50,290 nt of DNA, taken from sequence record OK272485.1. The stretch is one strand, 5' to 3'. The translations under genes were made by a program, and so were the position numbers. The notes beneath the pieces were generated by a model. The model was not told the origin of the DNA and made no database searches. It was given only the letters and a program-made list of their open reading frames with translations. The first letter of the stretch is position 1; the number at the start of each line of letters is the position of its first letter. Shown piece after piece: positions 1,474 through 50,220 of this stretch. Source of the DNA: Escherichia phage JLBYU07.

Positions 1474-1493
1474 ATAGCATTTTTTGTTAAAAC
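1474..1493 (+). promoter_or_regulatory. conserved intergenic box copy (variant ATAGCATTTTTTGTTAAAAC)
   Basis: divergent region between 986-1462 and helicase; antisense copy abuts RBS of minus gene. Confidence 0.6.
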
Positions 1494-1549
1494 AGTTTAT
1501 TGTAATGAGTCTATTATATACTCCAAATGGCATTTTTTAAAGGTTTAAG

Positions 1550-3547
1550 ATGATTCCAAATATCGAAAAACAAATATCAGCGTTAGGCGAGGCAGTAATA
1601 AAAAGCATCCAAGAGCGATTCACGGTTGGCAATATAGTGCCTTATCCTTATCAGTGCGTTGCGTATGCCGAGATCGCAAAGCGCATGAAAAACTATGAGC
1701 ATCCTTTCTTTGTTAAGGCTTCTGTGTCGGCTGGCAAAACATTGATGTTTGCGATGGTTGCGGCGCAATGCCGCAAAATGGGATTGAAAATGATGGTCCT
1801 TGCTCGCCAGGCTGAAATTGTTGATCAGGATTCGGAAGAGATCAGCAATCTTGGCGTGCCAAACTCAATCTATTGCGCCGGACTGAAAACAAAAAGCGCA
1901 TACTTTCCGATCGTGGTCGGTTCTGAGGGCACTGTAGTAAACGGATTGTTTAAGTCGTTAGGTGATTATGTTCCGCACGTTATCGGTATTGATGAATGTC
2001 ACCAGGTGGATTGGGAGGATCTCGCCGACGCGATAGAAAATAATGAATCTTACCAGCAGATGACCACTAAGAAGGATTTGCCTGTACTGATTGGAGAAGA
2101 ACAGCAATTTGATTCCAATGGCGATCCAATGTTCGGAACAGGGCGCACACAGTACACCGTAATAATCATGGAAATGATGCGCAGGTGTCGCGAGGCATAC
2201 GGGCACGAATTGCGAATATTCGGTATGACTGGATCTGAATTTCGCGGCGTTGTTCCAATACTGGTTGAAGATAAGAACAAAAAGGGATTCTGGCGTGAGC
2301 AGGTGACTAACATAGACACAAACTACTTAATCAAATTCGGTTCGGTAGTGCCAACAAACTTCGGCGACGTAGGCGACCTGGGTTATGACCTTTCAGAGTT
2401 CGAAGCCAGTAGCGAGGATGGCGTTTCAGACTTTGACGCTAAAACATTGCGCAAGATGGAAGAAAAGATCCATCAAGACGCAACAATGACACAGAAAATC
2501 ATGGCTAAAGTCCATGAGATATGCAAAGACAGGAACGGAGTTTTAGTTACATGCGCAGGGGAAAGACACTGCAAGGAGGCCGCCGCCGCACTGCCGCCAG
2601 GCGTTGAATACAGGATCATAACTGGCAAGACTGGAGATAATCAGCGTAAAGAGTGGCTGAGGGAGGCATACGAGGGAAAAGTAAAATACATCTTCCAGGT
2701 ACAGGCGCTTACCACTGGCGTTAACGTTCCGTTTTGGGATACTTCGGTAATACTGAGAAAGATAGGATCTCTAACATTGCTTATCCAGCTTTTGGGGCGC
2801 GGTATGCGACTGCTTAAGCAATGGCACATTGAGCAGGGATTCAAGAAAAAAGACCATCTTGTATTGGATTTTGCCGGTACTATGGATGAGTTAGGGGATT
2901 TGTATTTCGATCCAATCCTTGAGCAAGCGCAATTCCAAAAGAGATTTACAAACGGGAAAGAGCCTAAGACTTGTCCGATATGTGGAACGCTAAACAGCTT
3001 TTACGCTCGCCGATGTATGCACGTAGACGATAACGGGAAGAGATGCGAGCATTTTTGGACTTACAGAATTTGCGAGGACCAGGTAGATCCGAGAACGAAA
3101 AAGATAATCAAGCGCGGTTGCGGAACAAAAAACGACGTAGTGGCGAGAGTATGCCGTTGTTGCGATATTTCTCTTGTCGATCCTAACGAGAAGTTAAGCG
3201 GTAAGCACTACACCAAAAACGATTGGTGCAACGTTAAATCTTTCCGCGTTGATATGACGAAAAACCAGAAAGGAATTATTTTTTGCTATGAGCTTGAGGC
3301 CAACGGCGACACGTTCAAGGCATACGAAAGATTTTTCCCTGAGTCAGAAAGCAACATTTGCAGGACGATATGGAGAAAAATAGCATTGCAGCACATACCG
3401 GATCGCAAGATTGCTGGTATGGTGGCGAGCTATAGAAATGCGCGTAAAATAATGTCATACGCTCATCACATCATGCCGCCTGTACGCGTAACGCATCGCA
3501 AAAACGGCAAAGGTGAGGATAACATTGCAAAACGGGAGTTTGTTTAA
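1550..3547 (+). CDS. SF2 (DEAD/DEAH-type) DNA helicase
   Basis: 665 aa; Walker A SVSAGKT, DECH box (GIDECHQ), C-terminal Cys clusters (CPICG, CRCC). Confidence 0.8.
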   Translation: MIPNIEKQISALGEAVIKSIQERFTVGNIVPYPYQCVAYAEIAKRMKNYEHPFFVKASVSAGKTLMFAMVAAQCRKMGLKMMVLARQAEIVDQDSEEISNLGVPNSIYCAGLKTKSAYFPIVVGSEGTVVNGLFKSLGDYVPHVIGIDECHQVDWEDLADAIENNESYQQMTTKKDLPVLIGEEQQFDSNGDPMFGTGRTQYTVIIMEMMRRCREAYGHELRIFGMTGSEFRGVVPILVEDKNKKGFWREQVTNIDTNYLIKFGSVVPTNFGDVGDLGYDLSEFEASSEDGVSDFDAKTLRKMEEKIHQDATMTQKIMAKVHEICKDRNGVLVTCAGERHCKEAAAALPPGVEYRIITGKTGDNQRKEWLREAYEGKVKYIFQVQALTTGVNVPFWDTSVILRKIGSLTLLIQLLGRGMRLLKQWHIEQGFKKKDHLVLDFAGTMDELGDLYFDPILEQAQFQKRFTNGKEPKTCPICGTLNSFYARRCMHVDDNGKRCEHFWTYRICEDQVDPRTKKIIKRGCGTKNDVVARVCRCCDISLVDPNEKLSGKHYTKNDWCNVKSFRVDMTKNQKGIIFCYELEANGDTFKAYERFFPESESNICRTIWRKIALQHIPDRKIAGMVASYRNARKIMSYAHHIMPPVRVTHRKNGKGEDNIAKREFV

Positions 3548-3966
3548 TGGCTATAACTGATAAAGGAGATTATCTTGAGTTTTACGAAAGAGATCCAACC
3601 GACACTAGAAAGGAAGTTAATCACCAGATAGATAGCTTTCAGTGGTTGACTTATACTCATCCTTACTTGCTGGCGTGGCATACGGTAAACGAGAATGAGA
3701 AGTCTAAAGCAACGGCGATGATTGATCAGCAGTCCGGCTTGGTTAAGGGTGTAAGCGATTTCATCATCCTGATTGGTTTAAACGGAAAATACCCATTTGC
3801 AGCGATTGAGATCAAACGAGTGAATAAATCAGGCAAGGGTAAAGCATCACCAGTCAGCGATGAACAAAAGGCTTTTTTGCGTCGAGTTCGCAGCTTAGGA
3901 GGATTCGCTGCGGTCGCCTACGGATTTAATCAGTTTAAGTTGGCTATTGAATACATGCTTAAATAG
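3547..3966 (+). CDS. VRR-NUC domain nuclease
   Basis: 139 aa; PD-(D/E)XK-type pattern GVSDFIIL...AIEIK...SDEQ typical of VRR-NUC; ATGA-coupled to helicase; stop TAG lies in conserved box. Confidence 0.75.
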   Translation: MAITDKGDYLEFYERDPTDTRKEVNHQIDSFQWLTYTHPYLLAWHTVNENEKSKATAMIDQQSGLVKGVSDFIILIGLNGKYPFAAIEIKRVNKSGKGKASPVSDEQKAFLRRVRSLGGFAAVAYGFNQFKLAIEYMLK

Positions 3967-3982
3967 CACTTTTTGTTAAAAC
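3962..3982 (+). promoter_or_regulatory. conserved intergenic box AATAGCACTTTTTGTTAAAAC
   Basis: exact copy; TAG is stop of VRR-NUC gene; followed by hairpin TGGCGCGATGGATTGCGCCA and ATAATT. Confidence 0.65.
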
Positions 3983-4045
3983 TGGCGCGATGGATTGCGC
4001 CATAATTCAATAACACGAGATAGCTTTTAATAGCGGAGAAATGAA

Positions 4046-4775: not shown

Positions 4776-5015
4776 ATGGAAAAAGAGAGAAGCGTTTTAC
4801 TTAATGAGGATGGCGAATTTCTTTTATATCGCGCTATGGTGTGCGACTGTATGGAAAAAAATTCGTTCGTTAAGCCATATATTGATTGCGATTTGTGGGA
4901 GTTTTCCGGCTGCCTGGATATGAGTTTTGAGGAAACTAGAAAACATCCTCTTGAAAAATGGCATGAAATAATTGCTAAAGACCTGCAAGAATTTTACGAT
5001 TCAGCGATCAAATAG
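4776..5015 (+). CDS. hypothetical Cys-rich protein
   Basis: 79 aa; GGAG RBS 8 nt upstream of ATG 4776; track ORF 4665 start lies inside dam; stop TAG in conserved box. Confidence 0.55.
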   Translation: MEKERSVLLNEDGEFLLYRAMVCDCMEKNSFVKPYIDCDLWEFSGCLDMSFEETRKHPLEKWHEIIAKDLQEFYDSAIK

Positions 5016-5031
5016 CACTTTTTGTTAAAAC
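5011..5031 (+). promoter_or_regulatory. conserved intergenic box AATAGCACTTTTTGTTAAAAC
   Basis: exact copy; TAG is stop of gene 4776-5015; followed by hairpin and ATAATT. Confidence 0.65.
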
Positions 5032-5087
5032 GCCCAGCCTAGTGTCGGGCATAATTATTTCAACGAAACAAACATGAGGAAATAAAA

Positions 5088-5267
5088 ATGGTAGTATTCG
5101 ATAAACGCGCTTTTAATCTTGCTCAAGAGGTGGCAAAAGGTTCAGTGGATGGCGATTCAAAGGAAGGATTCCAGTTTGATTGGGAGATCGCAATGTTTTT
5201 ACTGAAAGTTGCATACGGTCACGCACCAATTGAACAAGCGGAGGCATATTATAAGCATGAAGGTTGA
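5088..5267 (+). CDS. hypothetical small protein
   Basis: 59 aa, below ORF-track threshold; GAGGA RBS; hand-translated MVVFDKRAFNLAQEV... Confidence 0.5.
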   Translation: MVVFDKRAFNLAQEVAKGSVDGDSKEGFQFDWEIAMFLLKVAYGHAPIEQAEAYYKHEG

Positions 5268-5499
5268 GCAAGGAAGAGATGCGGTATGGAATCACGCTAA
5301 AGAATGCGGTATTGCCGACGACATAAAGAAGATCGCGCAATACTTTGATATTGCAGATGTGAGCATAATTAGCGGCGACAAGATGACTTTCCTCAAGGAA
5401 AGGCCGCGAAAAATGGTAAGAGTTCCAGCAGTTCCAACAAAAATTGATTTCAAAGAGGCAATGGCTAAAATCCGAGAGCCTCGCAAATATTATAAATGA
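5257..5499 (+). CDS. hypothetical protein
   Basis: 80 aa; ATG 5257 overlaps stop of upstream small gene; GGAGG RBS. Confidence 0.5.
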   Translation: MKVEQGRDAVWNHAKECGIADDIKKIAQYFDIADVSIISGDKMTFLKERPRKMVRVPAVPTKIDFKEAMAKIREPRKYYK

Positions 5500-5593
5500 T
5501 GATAGTTATCATGTGGCGCTTGTTTGTTCTACCGTTACCCGTTATCATCGCTGTTACAGTTATGTACCATATAGTGATGAGATAGGTAGCAGA

Positions 5594-6709
5594 ATGAAAA
5601 ATGTAAAAATTACAGATGAGCAATTCAAGATCGAACGGGCGGCGGGTAAGACATATAAACAGATCGCTCAAGAGTACGGAATGAATGTTAGAAGCGTCGA
5701 GCGTCGCGCGGCGCGTCTTGCAAAGCAAGGCCAGGTATCCACCATTGGAGCGCCTGGTTTTGGAGTTCATGGTGAGTCAGTAATGACTGACAAAGAAGGC
5801 AACATAATCCTAAAGTGGACTAAAACCAGCAAGGATAAAGAGCAATTAGAAGCATTAATGCGCGCAGCAATGGAGGCATTTAGCGAGGAAGTGCCGCGAT
5901 TAGATCCGGTCCCATTACAGGAGCGCGACTATAACGAAACGCTTTCCTTGTATCCGATCTTTGACATGCACTTAGGCGCTATGGCCCATAAGCACGAATG
6001 CGGCGAAAATTGGGATACTGCCACGGCAGAGCGCGTTATGAATAACTTTATCGACTATGCTTTAATGTGCGCACCGGATAGCGAAAAGGCTGTCATCCTG
6101 ATTGGTGGCGATATGCTGCATAGCGACGGCCTGGAGGCGGTTACACCTGCAAGCGGTCACGTACTGGATCAAGATAGTCGATATGCAAAATTGGTTTACG
6201 TTGCCATCCGTGCAATGCGACGCGCAATCAATAAAATGTTGTTAAAGCATAAACATGTTGAAGTCCAGATCGTAGAGGGAAATCATGACCAATCAGGAAT
6301 GATTTGGCTGCGCGCAGCAATGGCGGCAGCATATGAAAACGAGCCGCGCGTTTACGTTGATGTTTCACCTCGCGTTGTGCACCACACGCAATACGGAAAA
6401 ACTTTCCTTGCGTACCATCACGGGCACACAGTGCGTAAACCGGAGACTTTGCTAATGATGTGCGCGTCAGATTGGCGGGAGGACTTCGGAAACTCAAAAA
6501 CGATGTATGCGCACGTAGGGCACTGGCATCACCAGACCGTGACAGAAACGTCGCTTGGCATCGTTGAGGTGCATAGCACCCTGGCGGCAAAAGACGCATA
6601 CGCCGCGCGCGGTGGCTGGAGATCTCGACGCCGTGCGGCGGTTATCATTTACGACAAAGAGCATGGAGAGGTGGGGCGATTTGTTCACTATCCAGAAATG
6701 ATGAATTGA
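5594..6709 (+). CDS. HTH - calcineurin-like metallophosphoesterase fusion protein (SbcD/Mre11-like motifs)
   Basis: 371 aa from ATG 5594; N-terminal HTH KTYKQIAQEYGMNVRSVERRAARLAKQ; motifs FDMHLG, LIGGDMLHSDG, VEGNHDQ, YHHGH, VGHWHHQ. Confidence 0.65.
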   Translation: MKNVKITDEQFKIERAAGKTYKQIAQEYGMNVRSVERRAARLAKQGQVSTIGAPGFGVHGESVMTDKEGNIILKWTKTSKDKEQLEALMRAAMEAFSEEVPRLDPVPLQERDYNETLSLYPIFDMHLGAMAHKHECGENWDTATAERVMNNFIDYALMCAPDSEKAVILIGGDMLHSDGLEAVTPASGHVLDQDSRYAKLVYVAIRAMRRAINKMLLKHKHVEVQIVEGNHDQSGMIWLRAAMAAAYENEPRVYVDVSPRVVHHTQYGKTFLAYHHGHTVRKPETLLMMCASDWREDFGNSKTMYAHVGHWHHQTVTETSLGIVEVHSTLAAKDAYAARGGWRSRRRAAVIIYDKEHGEVGRFVHYPEMMN

Positions 6710-7071: not shown

Positions 7072-7562
7072 TGAGCATAAAGAACATGGTAGCGGCGGCG
7101 GCCTTTGGCGTTGCGGTTGCCTTGACTTCTCCACTTCTTGAAGAGATCGAAGGGGTAAGATACAAGCCATACAAAGATATTGCGGGAGTATGGACGGTTT
7201 GCGCAGGAATCACCGGACCCGATGTTATCCTGGGGAAAACGTACACTAAAAAAGAGTGTGATGCTTTGTTGGCTAAGCATATCCAGGTTGCTAAAAAGGA
7301 AGTTGACAAGCAAGTTAAGGTTTACATTCCTGATAGTATGCGTGCAGCAATGTACTCATTCACTTACAATGCAGGTGTGGGAGCTTTCAGAAATTCAACA
7401 ATGCTGAAACTCATCAACCAGGGGAAATTAAACGAGGCTTGCGATCAGCTTTATCGTTGGGCTTATTACCATAACCCAAAAACAGGAAAGCGAGAGAAGT
7501 CTAAAGGCTTGCTTAACAGGCGCAAGGTCGAATACAAATATTGCACAATGGATCTTAAATGA
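7071..7562 (+). CDS. SAR endolysin (T4-lysozyme-like muramidase)
   Basis: 163 aa; N-terminal signal-anchor-release helix [14 protein letters not shown]; catalytic E-x8-D-x5-T ([19 protein letters not shown]). Confidence 0.75.
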
Positions 7563-8193: not shown

Positions 8194-8254
8194 AATTTTT
8201 CCTTTTTGGTTGTTTCGTTTCGATGAAACAAATATACCCGACACTAGGCCGGGC

Positions 8255-8275
8255 GTTTTAACAAAAAATGCTATT
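8255..8275 (-). promoter_or_regulatory. conserved intergenic box copy (minus orientation, variant GCAT)
   Basis: followed on the minus strand by the same GCCCGGCCTAGTGTCGGG hairpin seen at 5032. Confidence 0.6.
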
Positions 8276-8786: not shown

Positions 8787-10363
8787 CCCAGCAGTATTGG
8801 ATTGACAAAAATAACACCATTAATCACACAAACATAATTTCTTTCTTCCAGCATTGGCAGCAAGTGCCCTTCTATCCTCTTCATTACGCCAGCCTGACCA
8901 ACGAAAGGTTTTACCTTTCTCGCTGATTCGTACAGGGCGCGAATATTCAGGATCCCTTTGTTGGCCTTGCCGTGCCTCGTGATCAATTCAATCAATTTAC
9001 CCATTTCAGCATCATCACCAGCATAACCAGAAGCATTGGCGGCGCTAATGTATGTTTTGCTCAATTCCTGAAACATGATCAACGCCTCTTGCATTGTTTC
9101 CACGTCGATCTCTTTCGACTTCTGCGGGTATCCGGCAGGATTAAACCAGTTACGGATAACATGCAGGACGGAAGCAAGCCTGATCACCTGTTTATCCATT
9201 TTACCAAGCGCACCGCGTAACATTGTATGAGAATACTTTCCTCCGTCTGCAAGATGCGGTTCCATATCCTGGCGAGCAATGTTGAGCACTCGCATAGCTG
9301 AACGGCTTATTTTCAGCGATATATTTGATTCGCTCATGATGTTATGCACCAATTGATAATATTGGGCTTTCAATTCAGAATCCACCGCCTCATAGGTAGA
9401 ATCACCATTTTCATCAATGAATGAGCGACGGCCTAAGAATGATTCCTCGCGGACCAACAAAAAACGCTCACTAACACCGATGCCTCGCGATCCAGCGTCC
9501 ATGATTCCGCTTATCGTTTCATCCTGGGCTATAACGCTCATACATCCAAGCGCGCGAAAACTCATATTATTGTCAGCATTAGCACGGGCAATTGATACGT
9601 GACCATTATCCCACGCCTTAAGCACTAGCTCACTGTTAGTCTTTCTTTCGCTATTTGCATAGGTCAAGCCTAACAGACTGTTAATACTTGTTGCTTCGTC
9701 AGATATTACGGCAAAGTTACCTTGCTTGTTGTTGATTTTCGCCAAGCCTTCTGGAGTTGTATCTGAAACAGGAAAAGTTATATCACACATTTTTTCCAGC
9801 TTTTCCTCCAGATCCTCTTTTTCCTGGTATAGAGATTCCATATCAGCGCCGGATCTTTCGCTTTTCATCTCCTTTGCAAGACCTGCCAGCTTTGCCTGTA
9901 TTTTCTTTCTTTCCTTGCGGCGTTGCTCGTTGATCTTCTCAACTTCCGCAATCATCGGAGCGATAGCCATGCTGTTGATCGCAGATTTACCAGTTGACGG
10001 CGGCTGGCTTGTAACGACGTAAAGCGCAGTCGGCTGATCGGTTCCGTGATAGTCAACCGTAAAACGTCCAAGCATAGCGGCAGAAATGCAGCCGATAAAG
10101 TGCATGTAAGCCGATGATTCAGGGAATTGAACGGATCGCGCAATGCTGCGTGATAACTTGCCGACAACATCAATATCATTACCAAGAGAAATAACGGGGT
10201 AGCGATCGTGACCGCTATTCACATCCTTTACGTCGCCCCAAAAGCTGGACGACTGGCGATAGCCGTTAGCCTGAATTGATACGCGAACTGGTGAGAGGTT
10301 CTGGCTTTCAGCCATAGCGATTATTTGCTGTGGAGTTAATTTGTTCGTTTCTAATGAAAACAT
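8783..10363 (-). CDS. P-loop NTPase, putative replication-associated ATPase (DUF3987-like by inference)
   Basis: 526 aa; Walker A PPSTGKS and Walker B FAVISDE separated by a Lys/Glu-rich coiled-coil insert; AGGAG RBS. Confidence 0.5.
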   Translation of the reverse strand: MFSLETNKLTPQQIIAMAESQNLSPVRVSIQANGYRQSSSFWGDVKDVNSGHDRYPVISLGNDIDVVGKLSRSIARSVQFPESSAYMHFIGCISAAMLGRFTVDYHGTDQPTALYVVTSQPPSTGKSAINSMAIAPMIAEVEKINEQRRKERKKIQAKLAGLAKEMKSERSGADMESLYQEKEDLEEKLEKMCDITFPVSDTTPEGLAKINNKQGNFAVISDEATSINSLLGLTYANSERKTNSELVLKAWDNGHVSIARANADNNMSFRALGCMSVIAQDETISGIMDAGSRGIGVSERFLLVREESFLGRRSFIDENGDSTYEAVDSELKAQYYQLVHNIMSESNISLKISRSAMRVLNIARQDMEPHLADGGKYSHTMLRGALGKMDKQVIRLASVLHVIRNWFNPAGYPQKSKEIDVETMQEALIMFQELSKTYISAANASGYAGDDAEMGKLIELITRHGKANKGILNIRALYESARKVKPFVGQAGVMKRIEGHLLPMLEERNYVCVINGVIFVNPILLG

Positions 10364-10415
10364 TCGTTAGCTTCTCCTTTGTGGGCCGTAAATTTTAACG
10401 GCCCAATACTACCCC

Positions 10416-10437
10416 GTTTTGTCAAAAAGTGCTATTT
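10416..10437 (-). promoter_or_regulatory. conserved intergenic box copy (minus orientation, TTGACA variant)
   Basis: TAG is stop of gene 10432-10653; followed by hairpin GGGCCGTTAAAATTTACGGCCC then RBS of ATPase gene. Confidence 0.6.
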
Positions 10438-10653
10438 GATCCGCTCTATTGCAACCAGAAGTCGATCAGGCTGGCGGTCGCTGTAGCATTCTCCTGTAAT
10501 CCCATCCTTAAACGTAAAGTAAAGCGCCTTATGATATGAAAAACCAATCAGCCAACCTACCGCCGTTTTTTTGATGGGCCTGACTATATCGCCAGGCTTG
10601 AAAGTCTTTGTGGTAGAATGCGTTACTTTATAACGGTTTTCACTGTTTATCAC
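10432..10653 (-). CDS. hypothetical protein
   Basis: 73 aa; stop TAG inside conserved box copy. Confidence 0.5.
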   Translation of the reverse strand: MINSENRYKVTHSTTKTFKPGDIVRPIKKTAVGWLIGFSYHKALYFTFKDGITGECYSDRQPDRLLVAIERIK

Positions 10654-11036: not shown

Positions 11037-11089
11037 GATTAGATCTCCTTTGTTTGTTCGATGTGATTATGCCAGGTTTTTACACCTGG

Positions 11090-11110
11090 CTTTTAACAAA
11101 AAGTGCTATT
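11090..11110 (-). promoter_or_regulatory. conserved intergenic box copy (minus orientation)
   Basis: TAG is stop of MTase-like gene; followed by hairpin GCCAGGTGTAAAAACCTGGC and ATAATC. Confidence 0.65.
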
Positions 11111-11816
11111 TTGAATTTGACTCAAAGACGGCGCGAGCAAATCCGCGCGGAGTGAGGGAGCGTAGTTGCTTTGTTCTGGCAGACTTACCGCCTAAAAACT
11201 TCCAACCCCAAAAGAACATTACGCCATCATCATTGGATAACGGCTTGCGTTCCGGTTCGGTAAATCCGTTGCCGCACCAGATAGCCGTCCTTTTAGTGTA
11301 GCCATCCTTTAGCGGCATTTTGGGGTGAAATGACCCATCGGATTCGTCCAAGTAGTTACCAAAATCGCGCGGATTGAAATAAAAATCCGGCTTGCGCCAT
11401 AGCGTTGATAGTCGGCCTACCGGATTCTCAGCCATCCAGGGAACACCGAAATGATTTCCGACTTTTTCAACCATGATTGCATTTTGGAGCGCGATATGAA
11501 TATCGTCTTCGCTGCGCACATGCTTACTTCCTGATTGGGCGAACATGGTGCAGTCTGGAAAGCCAAATACAATATCAGGTTTTGGAATATCCATCTTAAT
11601 GATGTTTTCAATGAAATTTTCATCAATCCACATATTCACATAATGCAGATTTTCATGCTTCATTTTGATGAAATATTCTCCGTGATTGCCTTCGTCAGCG
11701 TTAAAGCAATAGCATTGATAACCAGCCTTCGCATATTCAAGCAACATGATTCCAGATCCATCAAACATTGAGTAAGCAACTTTATTTCCCATGATTTTTA
11801 TGATACCCCAATTCAT
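11106..11816 (-). CDS. compact C5-cytosine methyltransferase-like protein
   Basis: about 236 aa (start ambiguous 11792/11816/11852); motif I FDGSG, motif IV-like GFPDCTMFAQSG, motif VI ENP, motif VIII-like KRTAIWC; minimal TRD, no clear motif X; stop TAG in box. Confidence 0.45.
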   Translation of the reverse strand: MNWGIIKIMGNKVAYSMFDGSGIMLLEYAKAGYQCYCFNADEGNHGEYFIKMKHENLHYVNMWIDENFIENIIKMDIPKPDIVFGFPDCTMFAQSGSKHVRSEDDIHIALQNAIMVEKVGNHFGVPWMAENPVGRLSTLWRKPDFYFNPRDFGNYLDESDGSFHPKMPLKDGYTKRTAIWCGNGFTEPERKPLSNDDGVMFFWGWKFLGGKSARTKQLRSLTPRGFARAVFESNSK

Positions 11817-12309
11817 TCTCGGCTTTACGTTTTGCGGCAACAGCATCTCCAAAACTGGAGAAACAACCTATATAAATCCTACTTCCTCGCTTTCCGCTTC
11901 CAACCCTTACAATCCACTTGCCATGTTTATTTTTATGCACGCCTGGTATGCCACTTGTATTGTTTTTCTGCTTTGATGTGTTTCGCATATTTCCTTTGTG
12001 ATCTTTTAACTCAAAGTTTATTGCTCTGTTATCAGTCGTAATGTGATTTACGTGATCAACCTCCATTCCTTCCGGTATAGGCCCATAGTGCATTTCATAG
12101 CATATTCTATGAACTTTCAGGTTATAACGTTTTCCGTTTACAGTAAGTGCGGTTTCTAAATATCTGCCACCACTACCCAAAGAGCCAACCTCATTACCAG
12201 CATTACAAGCATTCCATTGTTTAACTCTTGATTGGTGAATATCTTTTCTTTCTTTCCAGAACAGCTTTCCGGTTTCTGGATTGTATGTAAAGTAATCGTG
12301 CCAATTCAT
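11782..12309 (-). CDS. HNH homing endonuclease (with AP2-like DNA-binding domain)
   Basis: 175 aa; HNH core EVDHVNHITTDNR; C-terminal GIPGVHKNKHGKWIVRV...YIGCFSSFGDAVAAKRKAE; GAGGT RBS. Confidence 0.8.
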   Translation of the reverse strand: MNWHDYFTYNPETGKLFWKERKDIHQSRVKQWNACNAGNEVGSLGSGGRYLETALTVNGKRYNLKVHRICYEMHYGPIPEGMEVDHVNHITTDNRAINFELKDHKGNMRNTSKQKNNTSGIPGVHKNKHGKWIVRVGSGKRGSRIYIGCFSSFGDAVAAKRKAENELGYHKNHGK

Positions 12310-13724: not shown

Positions 13725-13778
13725 CTTTAAATCCTCGTTTGTTGTCGATGGGTGTAATATACCATTCAGGAGCACATC

Positions 13779-13800
13779 GTTTTTAACAAAAAGTGCTATT
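13779..13800 (-). promoter_or_regulatory. conserved intergenic box copy (minus orientation)
   Basis: between genes 13800-14063 and 13527-13724. Confidence 0.6.
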
Positions 13801-15025: not shown

Positions 15026-15084
15026 TTACTATCTCCTGAGCGGTTCGTTTCGATGTGTGTAATGTACCCGATCAGGTGGCCTGA

Positions 15085-15106
15085 GTTTTAACAAAAAGTG
15101 CTATTT
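15085..15106 (-). promoter_or_regulatory. conserved intergenic box copy (minus orientation)
   Basis: at head of leftward early operon, about 60 nt upstream of gene 14753-15025. Confidence 0.6.
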
Positions 15107-15659: not shown

Positions 15660-15687
15660 TTGACACGCACCAAATAGCTTTTATAAT
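15660..15687 (+). promoter_or_regulatory. near-consensus sigma70 promoter (TTGACA-N16-TATAAT)
   Basis: TTGACA at 15660-15665, TATAAT at 15682-15687; about 30 nt upstream of GGAGG RBS of gene 15719. Confidence 0.6.
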
Positions 15688-16452: not shown

Positions 16453-16468
16453 CACTTTTTGTTAAAAC
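16448..16468 (+). promoter_or_regulatory. conserved intergenic box AATAGCACTTTTTGTTAAAAC
   Basis: exact copy; TAG is stop of lipoprotein gene; ATAATA 23 nt after TTGTTA. Confidence 0.65.
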
Positions 16469-16469
16469 T

Positions 16470-33716: not shown

Positions 33717-33730
33717 AAGGAGATCTTGAG

Positions 33731-37086: not shown

Positions 37087-37088
37087 TA

Positions 37089-37439
37089 ATGAAGCTGGAT
37101 CAGTTTAAGTGGTGTACGCAGGTTCAGAACGGCGGCGGGGCAATGACGTCATCGAATAACGATCGAGAGATTGCATTCGGTAACGGATACACACAGGTAG
37201 CATCTGGAGGTTTTAACACAATCCGGCGAGAGTTTAGCATTGTTTACGCTGGGATTGATTACAGAGATGTTGTCAAGTTCCTGAATGAGCACAGGCTAAA
37301 GCCTTTCTTGTGGATCATGCCTGATGGAAGCCCTGGATTGTTCAGGGTGAAAAGCGGCAGCGTCGGCCTTACTCCACTGTCGCCAACCGTTCAGGAAGTA
37401 AAAGCTACTTTTACGGAGCAATTTACATCAATGCAATAA
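37089..37439 (+). CDS. minor tail protein (lambda M-like)
   Basis: 116 aa from ATG 37089; immediately after tape measure, first of M-L-K-I-J order. Confidence 0.65.
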   Translation: MKLDQFKWCTQVQNGGGAMTSSNNDREIAFGNGYTQVASGGFNTIRREFSIVYAGIDYRDVVKFLNEHRLKPFLWIMPDGSPGLFRVKSGSVGLTPLSPTVQEVKATFTEQFTSMQ

Positions 37440-37443
37440 TTTA

Positions 37444-37468
37444 AAGCCGCCTTTGTGCGGCTTTTTTC
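37444..37468 (+). terminator. rho-independent terminator
   Basis: hairpin AAGCCGCCTTTGTGCGGCTT followed by T6. Confidence 0.7.
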
Positions 37469-37501
37469 TTGATGTTACAATGAACAAAAAGGAGGTAGAA
37501 A

Positions 37502-38263
37502 ATGGCTAATAAAGAATCAGGTAGAGTTGAATTTGAGAACTGCCTACAAAGTTTGTACCCAGGAGAAATTATAACGCTTGTAGAGATTGACGGGACGAAG
37601 TTCGGGGCAAATATTTACCGATTTCACAATGAGAACATTTCTTATACTGCCGAAGAATTAATGCAAGCGCAGCAAACCGGAATCTTGCCGCCGAAAGATA
37701 TTATTTTTCAGGGTGAGGTTTACGGAGCGCGGCCTTTCGGTGTGAGCGGGATTAACTTCACAAGTAACGGCAGGGCAGATAAGCCTCAACTTATAGTGTC
37801 AAACCTTGACAGCAGGGTTAGCGCCATGATCAGAAATTACAATGGCATGATGCAAGCAAAGGTGACTTTCTGGATTACGGCAAAGGAATTTATAGGAGAA
37901 GGCGGAGCAATCAAAGATGGCGCTTACAGAAAATTGGTTTATTACATTGAGCGCCCAAGCCAGTATAATAGAGAGGTGGCGAAATTTGATCTGACGTCGC
38001 CTTACGATATGGATGGATTGATGATCCCGCCGCGCATCACTCAAAGCGTTTGCTATTGGGCGCAAAGGGGGTGGTACAGGAGCGGAAAGGGTTGCTCTTA
38101 TAACGGATCGGCAATTTTCGATAAAGACAATAAGCCAGTAACAGATCCATCACAAGACTATTGCGCAGGAACTGTAACGGCTTGCAAATTGAGATTCGGT
38201 CAGCAAAACGAGTTGGATTTCGGCGGTTGCGCGGTGGCGTCACTGCTACGGAGGAATCAATAA
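37502..38263 (+). CDS. minor tail protein (lambda L-like)
   Basis: 253 aa; AAGGAGG RBS; C-terminal Cys residues (CYWAQ, CSYNG, CAG, CKL) as in L-family. Confidence 0.7.
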   Translation: MANKESGRVEFENCLQSLYPGEIITLVEIDGTKFGANIYRFHNENISYTAEELMQAQQTGILPPKDIIFQGEVYGARPFGVSGINFTSNGRADKPQLIVSNLDSRVSAMIRNYNGMMQAKVTFWITAKEFIGEGGAIKDGAYRKLVYYIERPSQYNREVAKFDLTSPYDMDGLMIPPRITQSVCYWAQRGWYRSGKGCSYNGSAIFDKDNKPVTDPSQDYCAGTVTACKLRFGQQNELDFGGCAVASLLRRNQ

Positions 38264-38994
38264 TGATTAGTGCAAAAATTAAACTTGAAATAATGCAGCA
38301 CGTTAAAGAGGAATACCCTAAAGAGGCTTGCGGCGTCATAACTCAAAAGTCACGGGTACAGAAATATCACCGCATAACCAACGTGCATGACGATCCAGAA
38401 AATCATTTTGAAATGGACGCCGTAGAATACGCTGAATCGCTCGACAAAGGCGAATTAATCGCGGTGGTGCATTCCCATTGCGGGGATGGTGCTAGTACGA
38501 TACCGAGCGCGCACGACTCATGTATGTGCGATGAAATGGGTGTGTCGTGGATTATAGTTTCATGGCCAGAAGGTGATATGAGAATTGTCGAGCCGCAGGA
38601 GAGGCCGCTTATCGGTCGCCCGTGGTCGCTGGGGTCGTTCGATTGCTGGGGTCTTATCATGGCGTGGCATAAACAGCACGGAGTAGTATTGAATGACTTC
38701 CGAAAGCCTTACGAGTGGTGGAAGTCAGAATATGGTGAAAATCTTTACCAGGATAATTATTTGAAAGAGGGATTTGTTGAAACTAACGAGCCTCCAAAAC
38801 CTGGTGATATGGTGATTATGCAGCTATCATCGCCAGTCTGGAATCATGCGGGGATTTATTTGGGTAACAATCAGCTATTACATCATGCGTTTGGAAAGCT
38901 ATCTCGCATTGACTTGTATTCTGGATGGTATCAGGAGCACACTGTAAAAATTTGCCGACATAAGGATCTGAAATATGACATTGAAAGTAATTAA
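38263..38994 (+). CDS. tail assembly protein (lambda K-like; MPN/JAB plus NlpC/P60)
   Basis: 243 aa from ATG 38263; JAMM motif VVHSHCGDGASTIPSAHD; C-terminal Cys/His papain-like segment (DCWGL...H). Confidence 0.8.
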   Translation: MISAKIKLEIMQHVKEEYPKEACGVITQKSRVQKYHRITNVHDDPENHFEMDAVEYAESLDKGELIAVVHSHCGDGASTIPSAHDSCMCDEMGVSWIIVSWPEGDMRIVEPQERPLIGRPWSLGSFDCWGLIMAWHKQHGVVLNDFRKPYEWWKSEYGENLYQDNYLKEGFVETNEPPKPGDMVIMQLSSPVWNHAGIYLGNNQLLHHAFGKLSRIDLYSGWYQEHTVKICRHKDLKYDIESN

Positions 38995-39571
38995 GCTATC
39001 TGGTTCCCTGGGGCGTAGATTTGGCGTCTTTCACAAAATGGCGGTTGACTCATACCCCGAAGCAATACGCGCGCTATCTTCCCAGGTTGAAGGATTCAAA
39101 GACTACATGCAAAGCGAAGTAGGATCGCGAATGAAGTATGCTGTATTCGTTGACGGTAAAAACATTGGTCAGCATGATGAAAAATCATGGAAGTGCGCGC
39201 GAGAGGTTAGAATAGTTCCTGTTCCAACTGGTTCTAAGTCCGGCGGCTTGTTCAATGTTGTTGTTGGTGCTGTAATTATGGCTACTGCGTTCATTACTAA
39301 CGGTGCAAGCCTGGCGGCTATGGGCGCTTTTGCATCTTCCGCATTTATGATGGGTGGTGCTATCGCGCTTGGCGGTGTCATGCAAATGATCTCGCCGCAG
39401 CAGGGTGGAATGAAACTGCAAAGCCAATCAGCAGAAAACAAGCCTTCTTACGCTTTCGGCGGCGCAGTAAATACCACGGCGGCAGGTTATCCGGTTCCTT
39501 TACCATATGGATATAGGACAGTAGGCGGCGCGATCTGGTCGGCTGGCAGCTACGCAGAAGATAAAGCATAA
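38975..39571 (+). CDS. tail assembly protein (lambda I-like)
   Basis: 198 aa; overlaps end of K; Gly/Ala-rich hydrophobic C-terminal half. Confidence 0.7.
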   Translation: MTLKVIKLSGSLGRRFGVFHKMAVDSYPEAIRALSSQVEGFKDYMQSEVGSRMKYAVFVDGKNIGQHDEKSWKCAREVRIVPVPTGSKSGGLFNVVVGAVIMATAFITNGASLAAMGAFASSAFMMGGAIALGGVMQMISPQQGGMKLQSQSAENKPSYAFGGAVNTTAAGYPVPLPYGYRTVGGAIWSAGSYAEDKA

Positions 39572-39578
39572 AAAAAAT

Positions 39579-39601
39579 ACCCGCCTTGCGCGGGTTTTTT
39601 T
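39579..39601 (+). terminator. rho-independent terminator
   Basis: hairpin ACCCGCCTTGCGCGGGT followed by T7. Confidence 0.7.
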
Positions 39602-39650
39602 GTGCCTTTATAATGTTCAAACCAAGAAACAGCACAAAAGGTTAAAAGTC

Positions 39651-42600
39651 ATGGCTAAATATATGATAAGCGGCAGTAAGGGCGGAAGCAAAAAGCCATA
39701 CGTGCCAAAAGAGATGGAAGATAACCTGATCTCGATAAACAAGATTAAAGTTTTGCTGGCTGTATCTGATGGCGAGTGCGATCCAGATTTCACGTTGCGT
39801 GATCTTTATCTTGATGATGTTCCTGTTATTGCCAGCGATGGCACTGTTAACTATGAGGGTGTAACGGCTGAATATAGGCCAGGCACACAGACGCAAGATT
39901 ACATCCAAGGGTTTACTGACACATCAAGCGAGGTGACAGTTTCGCGAGATATTACAACAGACAATCCCTATATTATCTCTGTGACAAACAAAAATCTTTC
40001 TGCAATCAGAATCAAGATTCTGATGCCAGTTGGCATGAAGCAGGAGGATAACGGCGATCTTGTTGGCGTAAGGGTTCAATATGCCGTAGATATGGCTGTT
40101 GATGGCGGTTCTTATAACGAGGTTATGAGAGATGTAATTGACGGCAAGACGAGATCAGGATATGACCGCAGCAGAAGGATTGATCTTCCTAAGTTTGAGG
40201 AGCGCGTTTTAATCAGAGTCAAGCGACTGACTCCAGACAGCACACCTTCAAAGGTGACTGATAAAATCAAACTGCAAAGTTACGCTGAGGTTGTGGATGC
40301 AAAATTCCGTTATCCTCTGACTGGACTTGTATTCGTAGAATTTGACAGCGAATTGTTTCCTACGCAAATCCCTAACATTTCTATAAAAAAGAAATGGAAG
40401 ATTATTAATGTTCCAAGCAACTATGATCCAATATCAAGAAAATATCACGGGTCATGGGATGGGACTTTTAAAAAAGCGTGGTCAAATAATCCTGCTTGGG
40501 TTCTTTATGATCTGGTAACGAATCAGCGTTATGGGCTTGACCAGCGAGAGTTAGGAATACAGATCGACAAGTGGAGCTTATACGAGGCTGGCGTTTACTG
40601 TGATCAGAAAGTTCCAGACGGTAAGGGCGGTACAGAGCCTCGCTACCTATGCGATGTAGTTATCCAGAATCAGGTTGAGGCTTATCAGCTAATCCGTGAC
40701 ATTTGCTCAATCTTTCGCGGAATGAGCTTTTGGAATGGTGAGAGTTTATCAATCGTGATTGATAAGCCGCGCGATCCATCATACGTGTTTACTAATGAAA
40801 ACGTCATCAACGGTGATTTTCAGTACACAACCGCAAGCGAAAAAAGCATGTACACGCAGTGTAACGTGACGTTTGACGACGAACAAAACATGTATCAGCA
40901 GGACGTAGAGGGGGTTTTTGATACTGAGGCTGCATTACGATTTGGATACAATCCAACAAGCATTACAGCGATCGGGTGCACACGCAGGAGCGAAGCGAAT
41001 CGTCGCGGTAGGTGGGTTTTGAAAACAAACCTTAGAAGCACTACTGTAAACTTTGCTACCGGACTAGAGGGGATGATTCCATCAATAGGTGATGTGATTG
41101 CTATCGCTGATAATTTTCAGAGCAGCAACCTAACGTTAAACCTATCGGGCCGAGTGATGGAAGTTTCAGGATTGCAGGTTTTCGTTCCGTTTAAGGTTGA
41201 TGCTCGTCCTGGTGATTTTATTATCATCAACAAGCCGGACGGCAAGCCAGTTAAGCGCACGATCTCAAAGGTTAGCGCAGACGGAAAAACCATTGAGTTA
41301 AATATTGGATTTGGTTTTGATGTTAAGCCTGACACTGTTTTTGCGATTGACCGTACTGACCTTGCGTTGCAGCAATACGTTGTGACAACTATCAGCAAGG
41401 GTGATGACGAAAACGAGTTTACCTATTCAATCACGGCTGTAGAGTACGATCCGAACAAATACGACGAGATTGATTATGGCGTAAACATTGATGACAGACC
41501 AACTTCAATTGTTCAGCCTGACGTGATGGTAGCGCCGGAGAACGTGCAGATCTCATCTTATTCTCGCGTCGTGCAGGGCGTTAGCGTTGAGACTATGGTT
41601 GTTTCATGGGATAAGGTTCCTTACGCATCTCTTTATGAAATGCAGTGGCGAAAAGGTGATGGCAACTGGCTGAATACGCCGCAGACAGCTAACAAAGAGA
41701 TAGAGGTAGAAGGAATTTATTCAGGGAACTATCAAGTAAGGGTTAGATCTGTTTCTGCAAGCGGTAACACCTCCCCGTGGTCAAAGATTGCAACCGCCAC
41801 CCTGACAGGTAAAGTTGGCGAGCCAGGAGCGCCGATTAATCTTACAGCTTCTGATAATGAAGTTTTTGGCATTCGTGTCAAATGGGGTATGCCGGAAGGA
41901 TCAGGCGATACGGCTTACATTGAGCTTCACCAATCTCCAGACGGAACGGTTGAAAACTCAAGCCTGCTTACGCTGATTCCATATCCTCAATATGAGTATT
42001 GGCATAGCACGTTACCAGCGGGTCAAGTTGTATGGTATAGAATCCGTAGCGTTGACAGGATCGGCAACGTTTCCGGCTGGACTGACTTTGTTCGTGGCAT
42101 GGCGTCAGATGATGTTGAATCTGTTTTAGGCGACATTCTGGACAAGATTTTTGATACCGAAGCGGGTCAAGAAATCAAAGAGAACGCCATAGACAGTGCC
42201 AACAAAATCAAAGACCAAGCGCAATCAATCATCCAGAACGCATTAGCAAACGATGCTGATGTGAAGTGGACGCGAGTACAAAACGGAAAGCGTAAGGCTG
42301 AATATGGTCATGCTCTTGAGCTTATCGCCAACGAAACTGAGGCGCGCGTAACTCAAATCGAAGAGTTAAGGGCGTCAATTGATGAAGATATAGTTTCAAG
42401 TATCAAAACCGTTCAGGAAGCGATTGCCAACGAATCAGAGACGCGAGCTACTCAAGTTCAGCAGCTTGATTCTAAATTTACGAAGGAAATAGACGGCGTA
42501 AAACGAGATACGGCTGCAAGTATTGGTGAGGTAAGGCAAACCATTACCAATGAATCAGAAGCGCGCGCTCAGGCCGTTCAGCAGCTTGACGCTAAGTTCA

Positions 42601-44421: not shown

Positions 44422-44476
44422 CTTCAATACTCCTTAGTTGTTGTTGACTGTAACTATACACGATCCGGCAAGCCGA

Positions 44477-44495
44477 GTTTAGCAAAAAGTGCTAC
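44477..44495 (-). promoter_or_regulatory. conserved intergenic box copy (minus orientation, variant)
   Basis: GTTTAGCAAAAAGTGCTAC about 55 nt upstream of lipoprotein gene start. Confidence 0.5.
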
Positions 44496-48223: not shown

Positions 48224-50184
48224 TATACAATTTCCCCCAATTGATGATCTGTTAGTGCCTTGTGCCATATACGGAAGTTTCTAACGTGCCCGAAAAGATG
48301 ACGTTCTCCCGTAGTTGTTTGTCCGCCAATCCTTATAGTAGCCGTTGATACTATATATCTCCATTCCGTTTTTGTTTCGCTTGATATTCTGGCATTACTT
48401 ACACAGCAATTTTTGTAATCACTCTTTACTCTCATTCCCATGATCATCTTTTTTAGTTTTGCATTCTCGTAAACCCTTCTGTTTGATCCACCTATATCGC
48501 AATAATGGAATCCATCATTATCGCCCTCGGCAGACCCGAAAGCAAGAATAATTGCCGCACCATATTGATGACCACCAGTATCGAAAACGCGAGGCGCAGC
48601 ATTTGGTGTTCTACTCCAGTTTTTATGAGCCTCCACAAGAATTGTAAACGGCAAATTGTAAAGGTTGTTTTTTATTGGCACTGTAACCATATCGCTTGCC
48701 CTTGTAGTCGGTGACGGACCTGATTGAATATAAGAAGAAGCACAAGACCCCAATTCAACTTGAGGGGTTGACAATTCAATATAATCCCCATCTGAATAAG
48801 CAGACACTGGAGATATTTGAAACTGAGCGTTTACCTTATTTTCTATTGCCTTGAATGTAACAATGGCAATATTCCATCCTGTAACATCATCCGTGTAAAC
48901 CTCAACATTAATTCTGTTTGCAGCACCCCCAGTTTTCTGGACTGAAAGATCCTTAAGTTTTATGTAAACACCTCCAGCGAATGCGATACTCCCAATATCA
49001 GCGCCAGCGGCAAATCTTACCCTCAATCTAACATCTTTATCTGATCTAAATCTGCATGAAGCAGTAACATTTTTTTCATTGCCAGATGTATCAAGGCTGT
49101 GAGCAGAAATAACAGATGCAAGGTTTAGCGCATCTGTTCCGCCAACATTAGACTGATCTGGAGCGAAGCGACCATAAAGAAATCCAAATGAATCTGTATT
49201 CGCTGTCACTTGCACAGAAGCTGAGCAACCCCAACCAGCAGGAGTTGAAGCATTAATCATATGGTTTGTTCTCTGCCCTTCAATCAGCAATCCATCTCTT
49301 TCAAAACGTGGTTCATCAATTGCTGCAACTGTAAAAACACCTGATTTGTTAATGTAAGTAGCGGTTGATGCTCGTTTAAACTTAACTATCTTGTCACCTG
49401 GCATCGTGATCTCATCGTCACCTATAACAATCTTTTTGTATGACGGCGAGAATCCGGTAATCATATCCAGGGAGTCATTAAATGGTATCCACACGTCCGG
49501 CAACGGTTGCAATAAGTCCTTGTAAGGTTCTGCGGCCTGATTTGCGTATTCCTCCGCTTGATCTCGCGCACTTTCAGCTCCTGCCTTTGCAGTGTTCGCA
49601 GCGTCACGCGCGGATTCAGCGCCTTTTCTTGCAGTTTCAGCGCCAGTCTTTGCAGTGTTTGCAGCGTCGCGCGCGGATTCAGCGGCAGCCTTTGCAGTGT
49701 CAGCACCTTTCTTGCTATTCTCTGCATTTGTTGCGCTTGTCTTTGCGTTATTCTCGCTAGTTTTAGCTGCCTTCTGACTTGCTGCGGCTGCGTCAGCATT
49801 TGTCTTTACGTCTTCCTGGATCTTCTGTAGCTTATCCCAATCAAAATCCTTGATGATCTCAATAAATCCAGCAAGCTCCGACTCCTTTCCCTGGTAATAA
49901 CGCAACGTTTCCGCTACGTCTTGCGCAAGACCATCAACCGTTAACGAGTCATGAAGCAAGATCAGGTAATTTGTCTTCTTGACTACCGCGCCGCCAGTAG
50001 TAATTGCGCGAATGCTTGTATCGCTAATCACTTCTGTAATCACAGCAGCTTGCAAAGGTTGAGCAAGAAAGAAAATAGTTGCGCCTGGGCGAATCAAGGT
50101 TAATTGCTCACGCCATTTTGTACCGTAACCAGTTACATAACCTTGCGCGTCCATAGACGCTTGGCCTTGTCTGTAAATCGCCAT
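48223..50184 (-). CDS. side tail fibre protein
   Basis: 653 aa from ATG 50184 (AGGAGG RBS); Ala/Lys/Ser-rich AxxSA repeats (AESARDAANTAKTGAETARKGAESARDAANTAKAGAESARD), Gly/Ser/Thr-rich distal domain. Confidence 0.75.
   Translation of the reverse strand: MAIYRQGQASMDAQGYVTGYGTKWREQLTLIRPGATIFFLAQPLQAAVITEVISDTSIRAITTGGAVVKKTNYLILLHDSLTVDGLAQDVAETLRYYQGKESELAGFIEIIKDFDWDKLQKIQEDVKTNADAAAASQKAAKTSENNAKTSATNAENSKKGADTAKAAAESARDAANTAKTGAETARKGAESARDAANTAKAGAESARDQAEEYANQAAEPYKDLLQPLPDVWIPFNDSLDMITGFSPSYKKIVIGDDEITMPGDKIVKFKRASTATYINKSGVFTVAAIDEPRFERDGLLIEGQRTNHMINASTPAGWGCSASVQVTANTDSFGFLYGRFAPDQSNVGGTDALNLASVISAHSLDTSGNEKNVTASCRFRSDKDVRLRVRFAAGADIGSIAFAGGVYIKLKDLSVQKTGGAANRINVEVYTDDVTGWNIAIVTFKAIENKVNAQFQISPVSAYSDGDYIELSTPQVELGSCASSYIQSGPSPTTRASDMVTVPIKNNLYNLPFTILVEAHKNWSRTPNAAPRVFDTGGHQYGAAIILAFGSAEGDNDGFHYCDIGGSNRRVYENAKLKKMIMGMRVKSDYKNCCVSNARISSETKTEWRYIVSTATIRIGGQTTTGERHLFGHVRNFRIWHKALTDHQLGEIV
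49470..49800 (-). repeat. tandem coding repeats in tail-fibre gene
   Basis: repeated units TTTGCAGTGTT[CT]GCAGCGTC[AG]CGCGCGGATTCAGCG on the plus strand. Confidence 0.65.
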
Positions 50185-50200
50185 TTGTAAAATCCTCCTA

Positions 50201-50220
50201 AATAGCACTTTTTGCTAATG
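50201..50220 (+). promoter_or_regulatory. conserved intergenic box copy (variant AATAGCACTTTTTGCTAATG)
   Basis: antisense to and abutting the AGGAGG RBS of the tail-fibre gene; partial second copy at 50232-50248. Confidence 0.55.

Follow-up and report, generated by a model that had tools for sequence, protein, structure and literature searches.

Here we analyze a repeated intergenic element of Escherichia phage JLBYU07 (sequence record OK272485.1) and put forward evidence that it marks a set of about 14 early and middle phage promoters which, judged from their sequence, are probably class II promoters dependent on the host activators MarA, SoxS, Rob or RamA. The whole stretch of DNA analyzed, hereafter the window, spans 50,290 bp and constitutes the complete, circularly permuted genome of a T1-like coliphage (Drexlerviridae, Tempevirinae, Warwickvirus), sharing ~98% identity with Escherichia phage tunus, to which it aligns with the window end joined to the window start. 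The case is built on the sequence match to the host binding site, or marbox, on promoter geometry, on enrichment and conservation of the sites and on the lack of a detectable phage MarA homologue, and from these we infer start sites, binding and activation.

The element, hereafter the box, follows the pattern ATAGCACnnnTTGyTAAAAc and is present in 18 copies in the window when strict and looser scans are taken together. A first-pass annotation of the window had proposed at least 17 copies of a 21-mer. A strict scan with that 21-mer, allowing up to 3 mismatches, yielded 13 matches in the window against 0.02 expected from 100 dinucleotide shuffles, far above chance, and looser scans recovered all 17 listed copies, including those at 19808, 25321, 44476 and 50202, together with an 18th, weaker copy at 983(-). 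Besides TTGTTA, the variants TTGCTA and TTGACA are also seen at that position of the core. Conservation in related T1-like genomes, which the first-pass annotation had proposed to examine, was likewise observed: the box architecture is present in T1 and Sd1, and the box is enriched in Klebsiella phage Sushi (Webervirus), with 12 matches against 0.92 expected.

The repeat itself is already known in T1-like phages. A 2024 re-annotation of phage TLS described 18 intergenic direct repeats of 21 nt with consensus aaATAGCACnnnTTGnTAAAA, co-directional with transcription and located ~76 nt upstream of start codons, and reported such repeats also in T1, Rtp and Rogue1; its authors, who detected no more than three sigma70-like promoters in TLS, suggested stoperators, enhancer sites or upstream (UP) elements, listing the function of the repeats as an open question (PMC11447400). 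The TLS repeats and the window box are the same element, agreeing in consensus, intergenic placement and co-orientation, and the distance from box start to ATG in the window is 68-83 nt. The TLS study does not include the fixed -10, the marbox match, the use of the box as amber stop or its occurrence outside Drexlerviridae (PMC11447400). The reading as class II marbox promoters and the presence of the element in several unrelated phage lineages were not found in the searchable open-access literature; neither the AHP24 paper nor that on RB43 makes mention of the box.

Alignment of 46 sites with flanking sequence, drawn from the window, T1 (Tunavirinae) and Sd1 (Rogunavirinae) revealed a composite unit, in which the box is followed by 18 nt, a TAnnnT hexamer, 6 nt, a conserved A, the leader ATCGAAAC, a Shine-Dalgarno sequence and the ATG. 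The filter used to collect these sites fixed G4-A6 of the box and A2 and T6 of the -10, the other consensus-specified box positions being held by a limit of 2 mismatches. The spacer between box and -10 measures 18 nt in 39 of the 46 sites, 17 nt in four and 19 nt in three. With A2 and T6 required by the filter, the TAnnnT hexamer agrees with TATAAT at 4.6-4.9 of 6 positions; the hexamer at the canonical -35 position agrees with TTGACA at 1.6-1.8 of 6, a random level, and 22-23 bp separate the TTGyTA within the box from the -10. These are thus promoters with a -10 and without a -35, featuring a conserved box at approximately -50 to -31. The earlier remark that an ATAAT-like hexamer follows TTGTTA at 22-23 nt, too far for a sigma70 pair, is borne out, the interval being a fixed 18 nt after box position 20.

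A canonical sigma70 promoter with TTGTTA as its -35 was rejected on account of this 22-23 bp spacer, and a sigma70-type scan (16-18 bp spacing) misses the box promoters, except for the one at 18025-18054, which it detects via TTAAAA. A sigma54 promoter (-24/-12, TGGCAC-N5-TTGC) was also rejected, the box reading TAGCAC-N3-TTG, with AG for GG and a spacing 2 nt short. As a separate observation, the GenBank record of phage AKS96 annotates "promoters" at 22079-22113 and 7280-7320 as TTGACA(N23)TATAAT and also TTGACA(N29)TATAAT, indicating that earlier annotators had met the odd spacing without explaining it.

Thirteen or fourteen of the window copies are oriented toward a gene with its start codon 48-63 nt past the box end, the downstream genes being replication, recombination, methylase and small early-region genes. 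The proposal that the box occurs in both orientations relative to transcription is therefore mostly wrong, while its role in delimiting transcription units held up. Three copies had been described as antisense and abutting a Shine-Dalgarno sequence; those at 33697 and 50202 (listed as 50201) are indeed reversed, and that at 1474 is in sense orientation for the helicase gene. At the predicted transcription start, 6 nt past the -10, begins the leader ATCGAAACGAAAC (e.g. 8224-8210 and 15054-15040), which is common to the window, T1, Sd1 and the phages C130_2 and Lw1 introduced below, and stands ahead of non-homologous genes.

The box matches the binding site of the E. coli MarA/SoxS/Rob regulators, the marbox or soxbox, in sequence, orientation and distance to the -10, contrary to its initial description as a phage-specific, unrecognized element. 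The soxbox/marbox consensus has been given as AYNGCACNNWNNRYYAAAYN (PMC2064960), the motif from MarA chromatin immunoprecipitation sequencing (ChIP-seq) as GCAHWWWWTGYYAAA (PMC6900184) and the "consensus marbox" of Sharma et al. 2017 as gcactaattgctaaa (PMC5684230). The main box copy agrees with AYNGCACNNWNNRYYAAAYN at 19 of 20 positions, and the copies at 19808 and 29945 at all 20; agreement with GCAHWWWWTGYYAAA is 15/15, and the core GCACTAATTGCTAAA of the copy at 25321, present also in T1 and Sd1 copies, is identical to gcactaattgctaaa. Scanning the window with the host-derived patterns rather than with the phage repeat returned 14 exact matches to the ChIP-seq motif against 0.13 expected, and 16 matches to the 20-mer marbox consensus with at most 1 mismatch against 1.28 expected. 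Both marbox recognition elements, GCAC (element 1) and YAAA (element 2), are found in the box, 7 bp apart. Among the 46 phage sites, the variable box positions (8-10, 14, 19 and 20) are those given as N, W or Y in the host consensus, and the invariant positions are G4, C5, A6 and A17 (G4-A6 being fixed by the site filter and the others under its 2-mismatch limit). The independently derived TLS consensus displays the same pattern of variable and invariant positions (PMC11447400).

In class II MarA/SoxS/Rob promoters, a forward marbox overlaps the -35 (PMC6900184), with its center located between -36 and -55, as at micF, where it lies at -41.5 (PMC9638938). The phage promoters share these properties: they combine the marbox sequence with forward orientation (GCAC distal, AAA proximal), overlap with the -35 position, a weak or absent -35 and a recognizable -10. 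The E. coli K-12 micF promoter has the box ACAGCACTGAATGTCAAAAC at -51 to -32, 18 nt, TAGAAT and 7 nt to the start. The phage box is identical to the micF box at 16 of 20 positions, with equal orientation and an equal distance of 18 nt to the -10, and, with the predicted start at the conserved A, 7 nt past the -10, its center would fall at approximately -40.5. The first-pass suggestion of a DNA site for an activator at non-canonical promoters is consistent with these data and is retained as a reading.

Under the mechanism we propose, a monomer of a host activator of the MarA family (Rob, MarA or SoxS, or RamA in Klebsiella or Salmonella) would bind the box, substituting for sigma70 region 4 at the missing -35 and recruiting the sigma70 RNA polymerase through the alpha C-terminal domain and sigma region 4, with transcription predicted to start at the conserved A 7 nt past TAnnnT. 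The SoxS-micF complex provides a model for polymerase recruitment (PMC9638938), and RamA is the MarA-family candidate in other genera. Searches for a MarA/AraC homologue using E. coli MarA (tblastn, and phmmer --max, against the six-frame window, T1, Sd1 and C130_2) returned no match with an E value below 0.17.

An IMG/VR scan for the box revealed the complete promoter, leader included, in unrelated Enterobacterales phages. Escherichia phage C130_2 (Hungariovirus), which carries P22-like structural genes, has 7 sites; in the T4-like phages Lw1, RB16 and RB43, the early dda-dexA region holds at least 3 sites; and Pantoea phage Vid5 has one strict site. The layout in C130_2, the RB43-type T4-like phages and Vid5 consists of box, 18 nt, TATAGT and leader, and chance box matches in other viral contigs, serving as a negative control, lack the -10 and leader. 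The lineages concerned are the T1-like Drexlerviridae (including therapeutic Klebsiella Webervirus phages), the podovirus-like Hungariovirus and the RB43-type T4-like phages, together with the single site in Vid5. It is quite possible, if a little short of probable, that these unrelated lineages of virulent Enterobacterales phages have wired early expression to host Rob, MarA, SoxS or RamA through promoters predicted, from their consensus marboxes, to be of class II.

These data also bear on whether sigma70 polymerase could act alone, with the box serving as a UP-like or displaced -35 element that boosts extended -10 promoters. We regard this as very unlikely, although TTGTTA, TTGCTA and TTGACA do resemble -35 hexamers, G occupies -14 in 39 of 48 Drexlerviridae sites and a TGn extended -10 is present in 18 of the 48; UP elements were also among the functions suggested for the TLS repeats (PMC11447400). 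The TTGnnA sequence lies 22-23 bp from the -10, beyond the 16-18 bp range of the sigma70-type scan, TGn is found in 0/8 C130_2 sites, and conservation is bipartite, its two parts, GCAC and TAAA, being separated by one helical turn, the pattern to be expected of a monomer with two helix-turn-helix (HTH) motifs. An invariant GCAC, moreover, is foreign to both the UP-element and the -35 consensus.

The possibility that a phage-encoded activator binds the box, its likeness to the marbox resulting from coincidence or mimicry, deserves closer consideration, even if we deem it rather unlikely. Activator-dependent middle promoters are the usual phage design, as in T4 MotA and Mu Mor, and the window offers three candidates: a Cro/YdaS-like regulator (986-1462, -), an HTH-phosphoesterase (5444-6709) with a weak HTH, and a basic protein of ~80 aa (5257-5499(+)). 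Pfam searches on 10 window open reading frames (ORFs) returned, in this respect, only a sub-threshold Cro/YdaS HTH and a weak HTH resembling sigma region 4. The distribution of the box promoters favors a host-supplied factor common to Enterobacterales over the T1 regulator: C130_2, with its 7 promoters, has no homologue of the T1-type regulator or phosphoesterase (best tblastn E 0.06, on the wrong strand; profile search E 1.5), and 40 regulator homologues sampled from 851 matches in the phage database all derive from genomes of 41-57 kb, with no T4-like phage among them. Replication enzymes, an endolysin and the ~80-aa protein are common to C130_2 and the window, and a 71-aa protein is weakly matched as well (E 0.001). 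Pfam gives no match for the ~80-aa protein, and its only homologues are close and unnamed; it shows no DNA-binding signature, its AlphaFold model is of low confidence (predicted local distance difference test score 58.6), and it is itself expressed from a predicted box promoter. A chance fit to a ~22-bit motif, compounded with spacing identical to that of micF, is also improbable.

Several observations nonetheless weigh against dependence on the host activators, some of them pointing to a phage activator instead. The Cro/YdaS-like regulator, its HTH included, is kept across Drexlerviridae subfamilies at 52-63% identity, and its gene has a sigma70-like promoter of its own. The ~80-aa protein, shared with C130_2 (9453-9653(-)) and located at 40254-40481 in T1, is kept in all T1-like genomes checked and is among the very few non-enzymatic proteins shared with C130_2. 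Box positions are conserved beyond the host consensus, with A3, T11 and an A just upstream nearly invariant, and this tighter specification could indicate a different protein. The 18 sites with TGn might fire without any activator. A relative of C130_2 with the same boxes (STP9) was deposited as a Stutzerimonas phage, in a record flagged UNVERIFIED_ORG. Rob binds marboxes most tightly yet is described as largely sequestered, and MarA and SoxS are scarce without stress (PMC5684230). A virulent phage that depended on scarce or sequestered activators would be taking a risk. We know of no report of rob, marA or soxS mutants resisting T1-like phages.

The predicted class II marbox promoters are embedded in their surroundings in a characteristic manner. 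In 9 copies (3963, 5012, 10416(-), 11090(-), 16449, 18012, 19808, 21102 and 25321), the ORF upstream terminates in frame at the box TAG, with AAA as the preceding codon in 8 of the 9, which bears out the earlier claim of at least nine such stops, usually Lys-stop. A heuristic set of 77 genes contains 42 that end in TAA, 27 in TGA and 8 in TAG, the TAG lying within a box in 8/8. Amber stops in this set are confined to genes that extend into the promoter following them. Tight genome packing would account for this arrangement, the upstream gene running into the promoter and taking the invariant box TAG as its stop.

Several of these stops precede genes on the plus strand, as follows from the individual copies. 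At 3963-4006(+), the box TAG stops a VRR-NUC gene (3547-3966), and the unit (18 nt with hairpin GGCGC..GCGCC, CATAAT) is the predicted promoter of the Dam methylase gene (ATG 4046). The copy at 5012-5055(+) (18 nt, CATAAT) stops an ORF ending at 5015 and would serve the small ORFs from 5088 and the phosphoesterase gene; that at 16449-16492(+) (18 nt, CATAAT) stops an ORF ending at 16452, the next ORF beginning at 16695. An ORF at 17863-18015 ends in the unit at 18012-18054(+), which has a 17-nt spacer, TATAAT and a hairpin GGCC..GGCC around the -10 and is the putative promoter of an ORF from 18085. Similarly, the copy at 19808-19851(+) (ATAGCACGAATTGCTAAACG, matching the marbox consensus at 20/20; 18 nt with hairpin, TATAAT) stops the ORF at 19221-19811 ahead of an ORF from 19882, and that at 21102-21145(+) (18 nt, TAAAGT, hairpin AAGGGC..GCCCTT around the -10) stops the ORF at 20812-21105 ahead of an ORF from 21178, each being its candidate promoter. 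The remaining stop on this strand, at 25321-25340(+) (ATAGCACTAATTGCTAAAAA), belongs to the large terminase gene. An intrinsic terminator follows at 25352-25373 and no -10 is found at 18 nt, so this copy, on sequence grounds, is probably a putative binding site and not a promoter.

On the minus strand, the TTGACA variant at 10392-10435(-) (18 nt, TAAAAT, hairpin around the -10) stops an ORF at 10432-10653 and is the predicted promoter of a DNA helicase gene (ATG 10363), while the copy at 11066-11109(-) (18 nt with hairpin CCAGG..CCTGG, z -7.0; CATAAT) stops a methyltransferase gene (11106-11846) and would drive an ORF from 11036. Four further minus-strand units with an 18-nt spacer precede a gene: 8231-8274(-) (box ATAGCATTTTTTGTTAAAAC, hairpin, TATATT, leader tgtttcATCGAAACGAAAC), upstream of an ORF from 8193; 13756-13799(-) (TATATT, acacccATCGAC), the putative promoter of an ORF from 13724; 15061-15104(-) (TACATT, acacacATCGAAACGAAC), likewise for an ORF from 15025; and the weak copy at 959-1002(-) (box ACAGCACAAATAGCTAATGA at 983-1002, TAATAT at 959-964), upstream of the primase gene (ATG near 930), which overlaps the terminator of the regulator gene and has its T1 equivalent at 35976(-). 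The unit at 44453-44495(-) (box GTAGCACTTTTTGCTAAACT, 17 nt, TATAGT) is the predicted promoter of a minus-strand ORF from 44427.

The helicase gene (ATG 1550) has its candidate promoter at 1474-1517(+) (box ATAGCATTTTTTGTTAAAAC, 18 nt, TATTAT), within a region, 1463-1549, of divergent and overlapping promoters. The -10 of this box promoter occupies 1512-1517, and a minus-strand sigma70-type promoter (TTTAAA-17-TATAAT, 1541-1513) serves the Cro-like regulator gene. Since the -10 hexamers of the helicase and regulator promoters overlap, mutual exclusion is expected, and the arrangement could work as a switch. The predicted 5' untranslated region (UTR) of the regulator gene would hold the box at 1474 in reverse, beside its Shine-Dalgarno sequence.

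GC-rich hairpins without a U-tract follow the box, as initially described: between the end of the box and the position 16 nt beyond the -10, the mean z is -3.1, and z is below -2 at 31 of 46 sites. Two layouts are found, with the stem-loop either inside the 18-nt spacer or bracketing the -10, its 3' arm then occupying -6 to -1. Wherever the layout was inspected, the stem extends no further than the predicted start, ending there or immediately ahead of it, and the hairpin is therefore possible only in RNA reading through from upstream, or as a DNA cruciform. One promoter subfamily displays a compensatory change, AAGGGC..GCCCTT (window 21102, T1 4864) versus AAGGCC..GGCCTT (T1 3535, Sd1 41855), and the T1 record annotates such hairpins as terminators. 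Under the mechanism proposed, the stem-loop between box and start would act, in read-through RNA from upstream, as a 3'-end hairpin; given the absence of U-tracts, these structures are probably weak terminators or 3'-end stabilizers. Rfam and tRNA scans of the window returned no matches. After the promoter at 16449, ~195 nt (16499-16694) carry no annotated gene, the equivalent gap in tunus measuring 246 nt; this stretch is no more structured than shuffles (z 0.14) and has no Rfam or tRNA match.

The same hairpins invite the alternative that box and hairpin constitute mainly a punctuation signal at the RNA level (for termination, processing or stabilization), or else a stoperator-type roadblock or a decoy for MarA, SoxS or Rob. 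Overlap of the box with stop codons, the significant hairpins next to it, their compensatory change and their annotation as terminators in T1 all agree with an RNA signal, and stoperators were suggested by the TLS authors (PMC11447400); two of the three reversed boxes described below and the copy at 25321 also lack a usable -10. We nevertheless consider this explanation highly improbable. The fixed 18 nt to the -10, the conserved start A and the co-orientation with genes are traits of a promoter, not required of an RNA signal; the hairpins lack U-tracts and match no Rfam family, and their sequence varies where that of the box does not. The RNA processing signal proposed in the first-pass annotation is hence not needed to explain the box, though the adjacent hairpins may still act on upstream RNA.

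Only three copies are truly reversed with respect to the neighboring late genes, and T1 has boxes at the same three places (15067(-), 18831(-) and 34902(+)). The copy at 29945-29964(-), which matches the marbox consensus at 20/20 and has a poor -10 (TATTAG), lies between the gene at 29138-29920 and the terminator and Shine-Dalgarno sequence of the major capsid gene (ATG 30011), ~45 nt from that ATG with the terminator in between. The copy at 33673-33716(-) (18 nt, TAGATT) abuts the Shine-Dalgarno sequence of the tape-measure chaperone gene (ATG 33731) and points into a bidirectional terminator (33635-33653). The third, at 50202-50221(+) (ATAGCACTTTTTGCTAATGA), adjoins the Shine-Dalgarno sequence of the minus-strand tail-fiber gene, points at the primase terminator and has no -10 at the right distance. 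The reversed boxes and the copy at 25321 could act as roadblocks, insulators, translation enhancers in 5' UTRs or decoys. Marbox-like sequences were also seen elsewhere: ACAGCACAAAAGGTTAAAAG, at 39629-39648(+), overlaps the Shine-Dalgarno sequence of the gene for a large J-like tail protein, as does its T1 counterpart at 25021(+), and T1 has a further one directly ahead of the small terminase gene, at 8362(+).

Beyond the box promoters, the window contains two near-perfect sigma70 promoters, at 15660-15687(+) (TTGACA-16-TATAAT, 12/12) and at 80-52(-) (TTGACA-17-GATAAT, 11/12), both likely immediate-early; the former lies upstream of a DUF7174 protein gene, where the leftward and rightward early regions diverge. 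The late structural operon (23156-39595) has no strong sigma70 promoters and contains strong intrinsic terminators, with 35 found against 21 expected (e.g. 23156, 25352, 29092, 29970, 30994, 33635, 34364, 37443 and 39579). Several of these directly precede TTTTATTATGGAG, comprising the Shine-Dalgarno sequence and start of the next gene.

If the class II marbox reading is correct, it would explain the transcription of most early and middle genes in a large phage family. Bile, salicylate, oxidative stress and antibiotics would then influence phage development, which would be boosted in multidrug-resistant strains with constitutive MarA or RamA, and the phage sites could in turn titrate host regulators of the MarA family. 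Activation by MarA, SoxS, Rob or RamA would tie phage expression to drivers of clinical multidrug resistance, with a bearing on phage-antibiotic synergy and on the choice of therapeutic Klebsiella and E. coli phages, and the sites would provide a set of very strong, compact and inducible marbox promoters. If a phage protein binds the box instead, it would be a new activator that mimics MarA specificity.

The proposed arrangement can be compared with several known systems. Like the box promoters as read here, T4 middle promoters, which operate through sigma appropriation by MotA and AsiA, have a -10 and no -35, with an activator box replacing recognition by sigma region 4 (PMC1524935). They differ in that the MotA box, TGCTT, is centered at -30, 11-13 bp from the -10, and in that the activator is phage-encoded. 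A MotA-dependent middle promoter was rejected for the window on these differences in motif and register; no motA or asiA is listed in the tunus annotation, and the 10 window ORFs scanned gave no such Pfam match. RB43-type phages are without MotA and carry a few marbox-type promoters. UP elements and the stoperators of mycobacteriophage L5 resemble the box in being AT-rich, repeated and oriented, and in lying near promoters or between genes, but UP elements have no invariant GCAC and stand in another register, whereas L5 stoperators bind the repressor of a temperate phage and are not paired with a -10 at a fixed distance. With class II promoters of the micF type, the phage promoters share an asymmetric GCAC/YAAA box of 20 bp, in forward orientation over a missing -35 and 18 nt from the -10. 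Unlike them, they are found in virulent phage genomes and reach ~14 copies close to consensus within 50 kb, in contrast to the degenerate, scattered sites of the host, and they add to this common design an invariant A3 and T11, a GC-rich stem in or around the spacer and a conserved transcribed leader.

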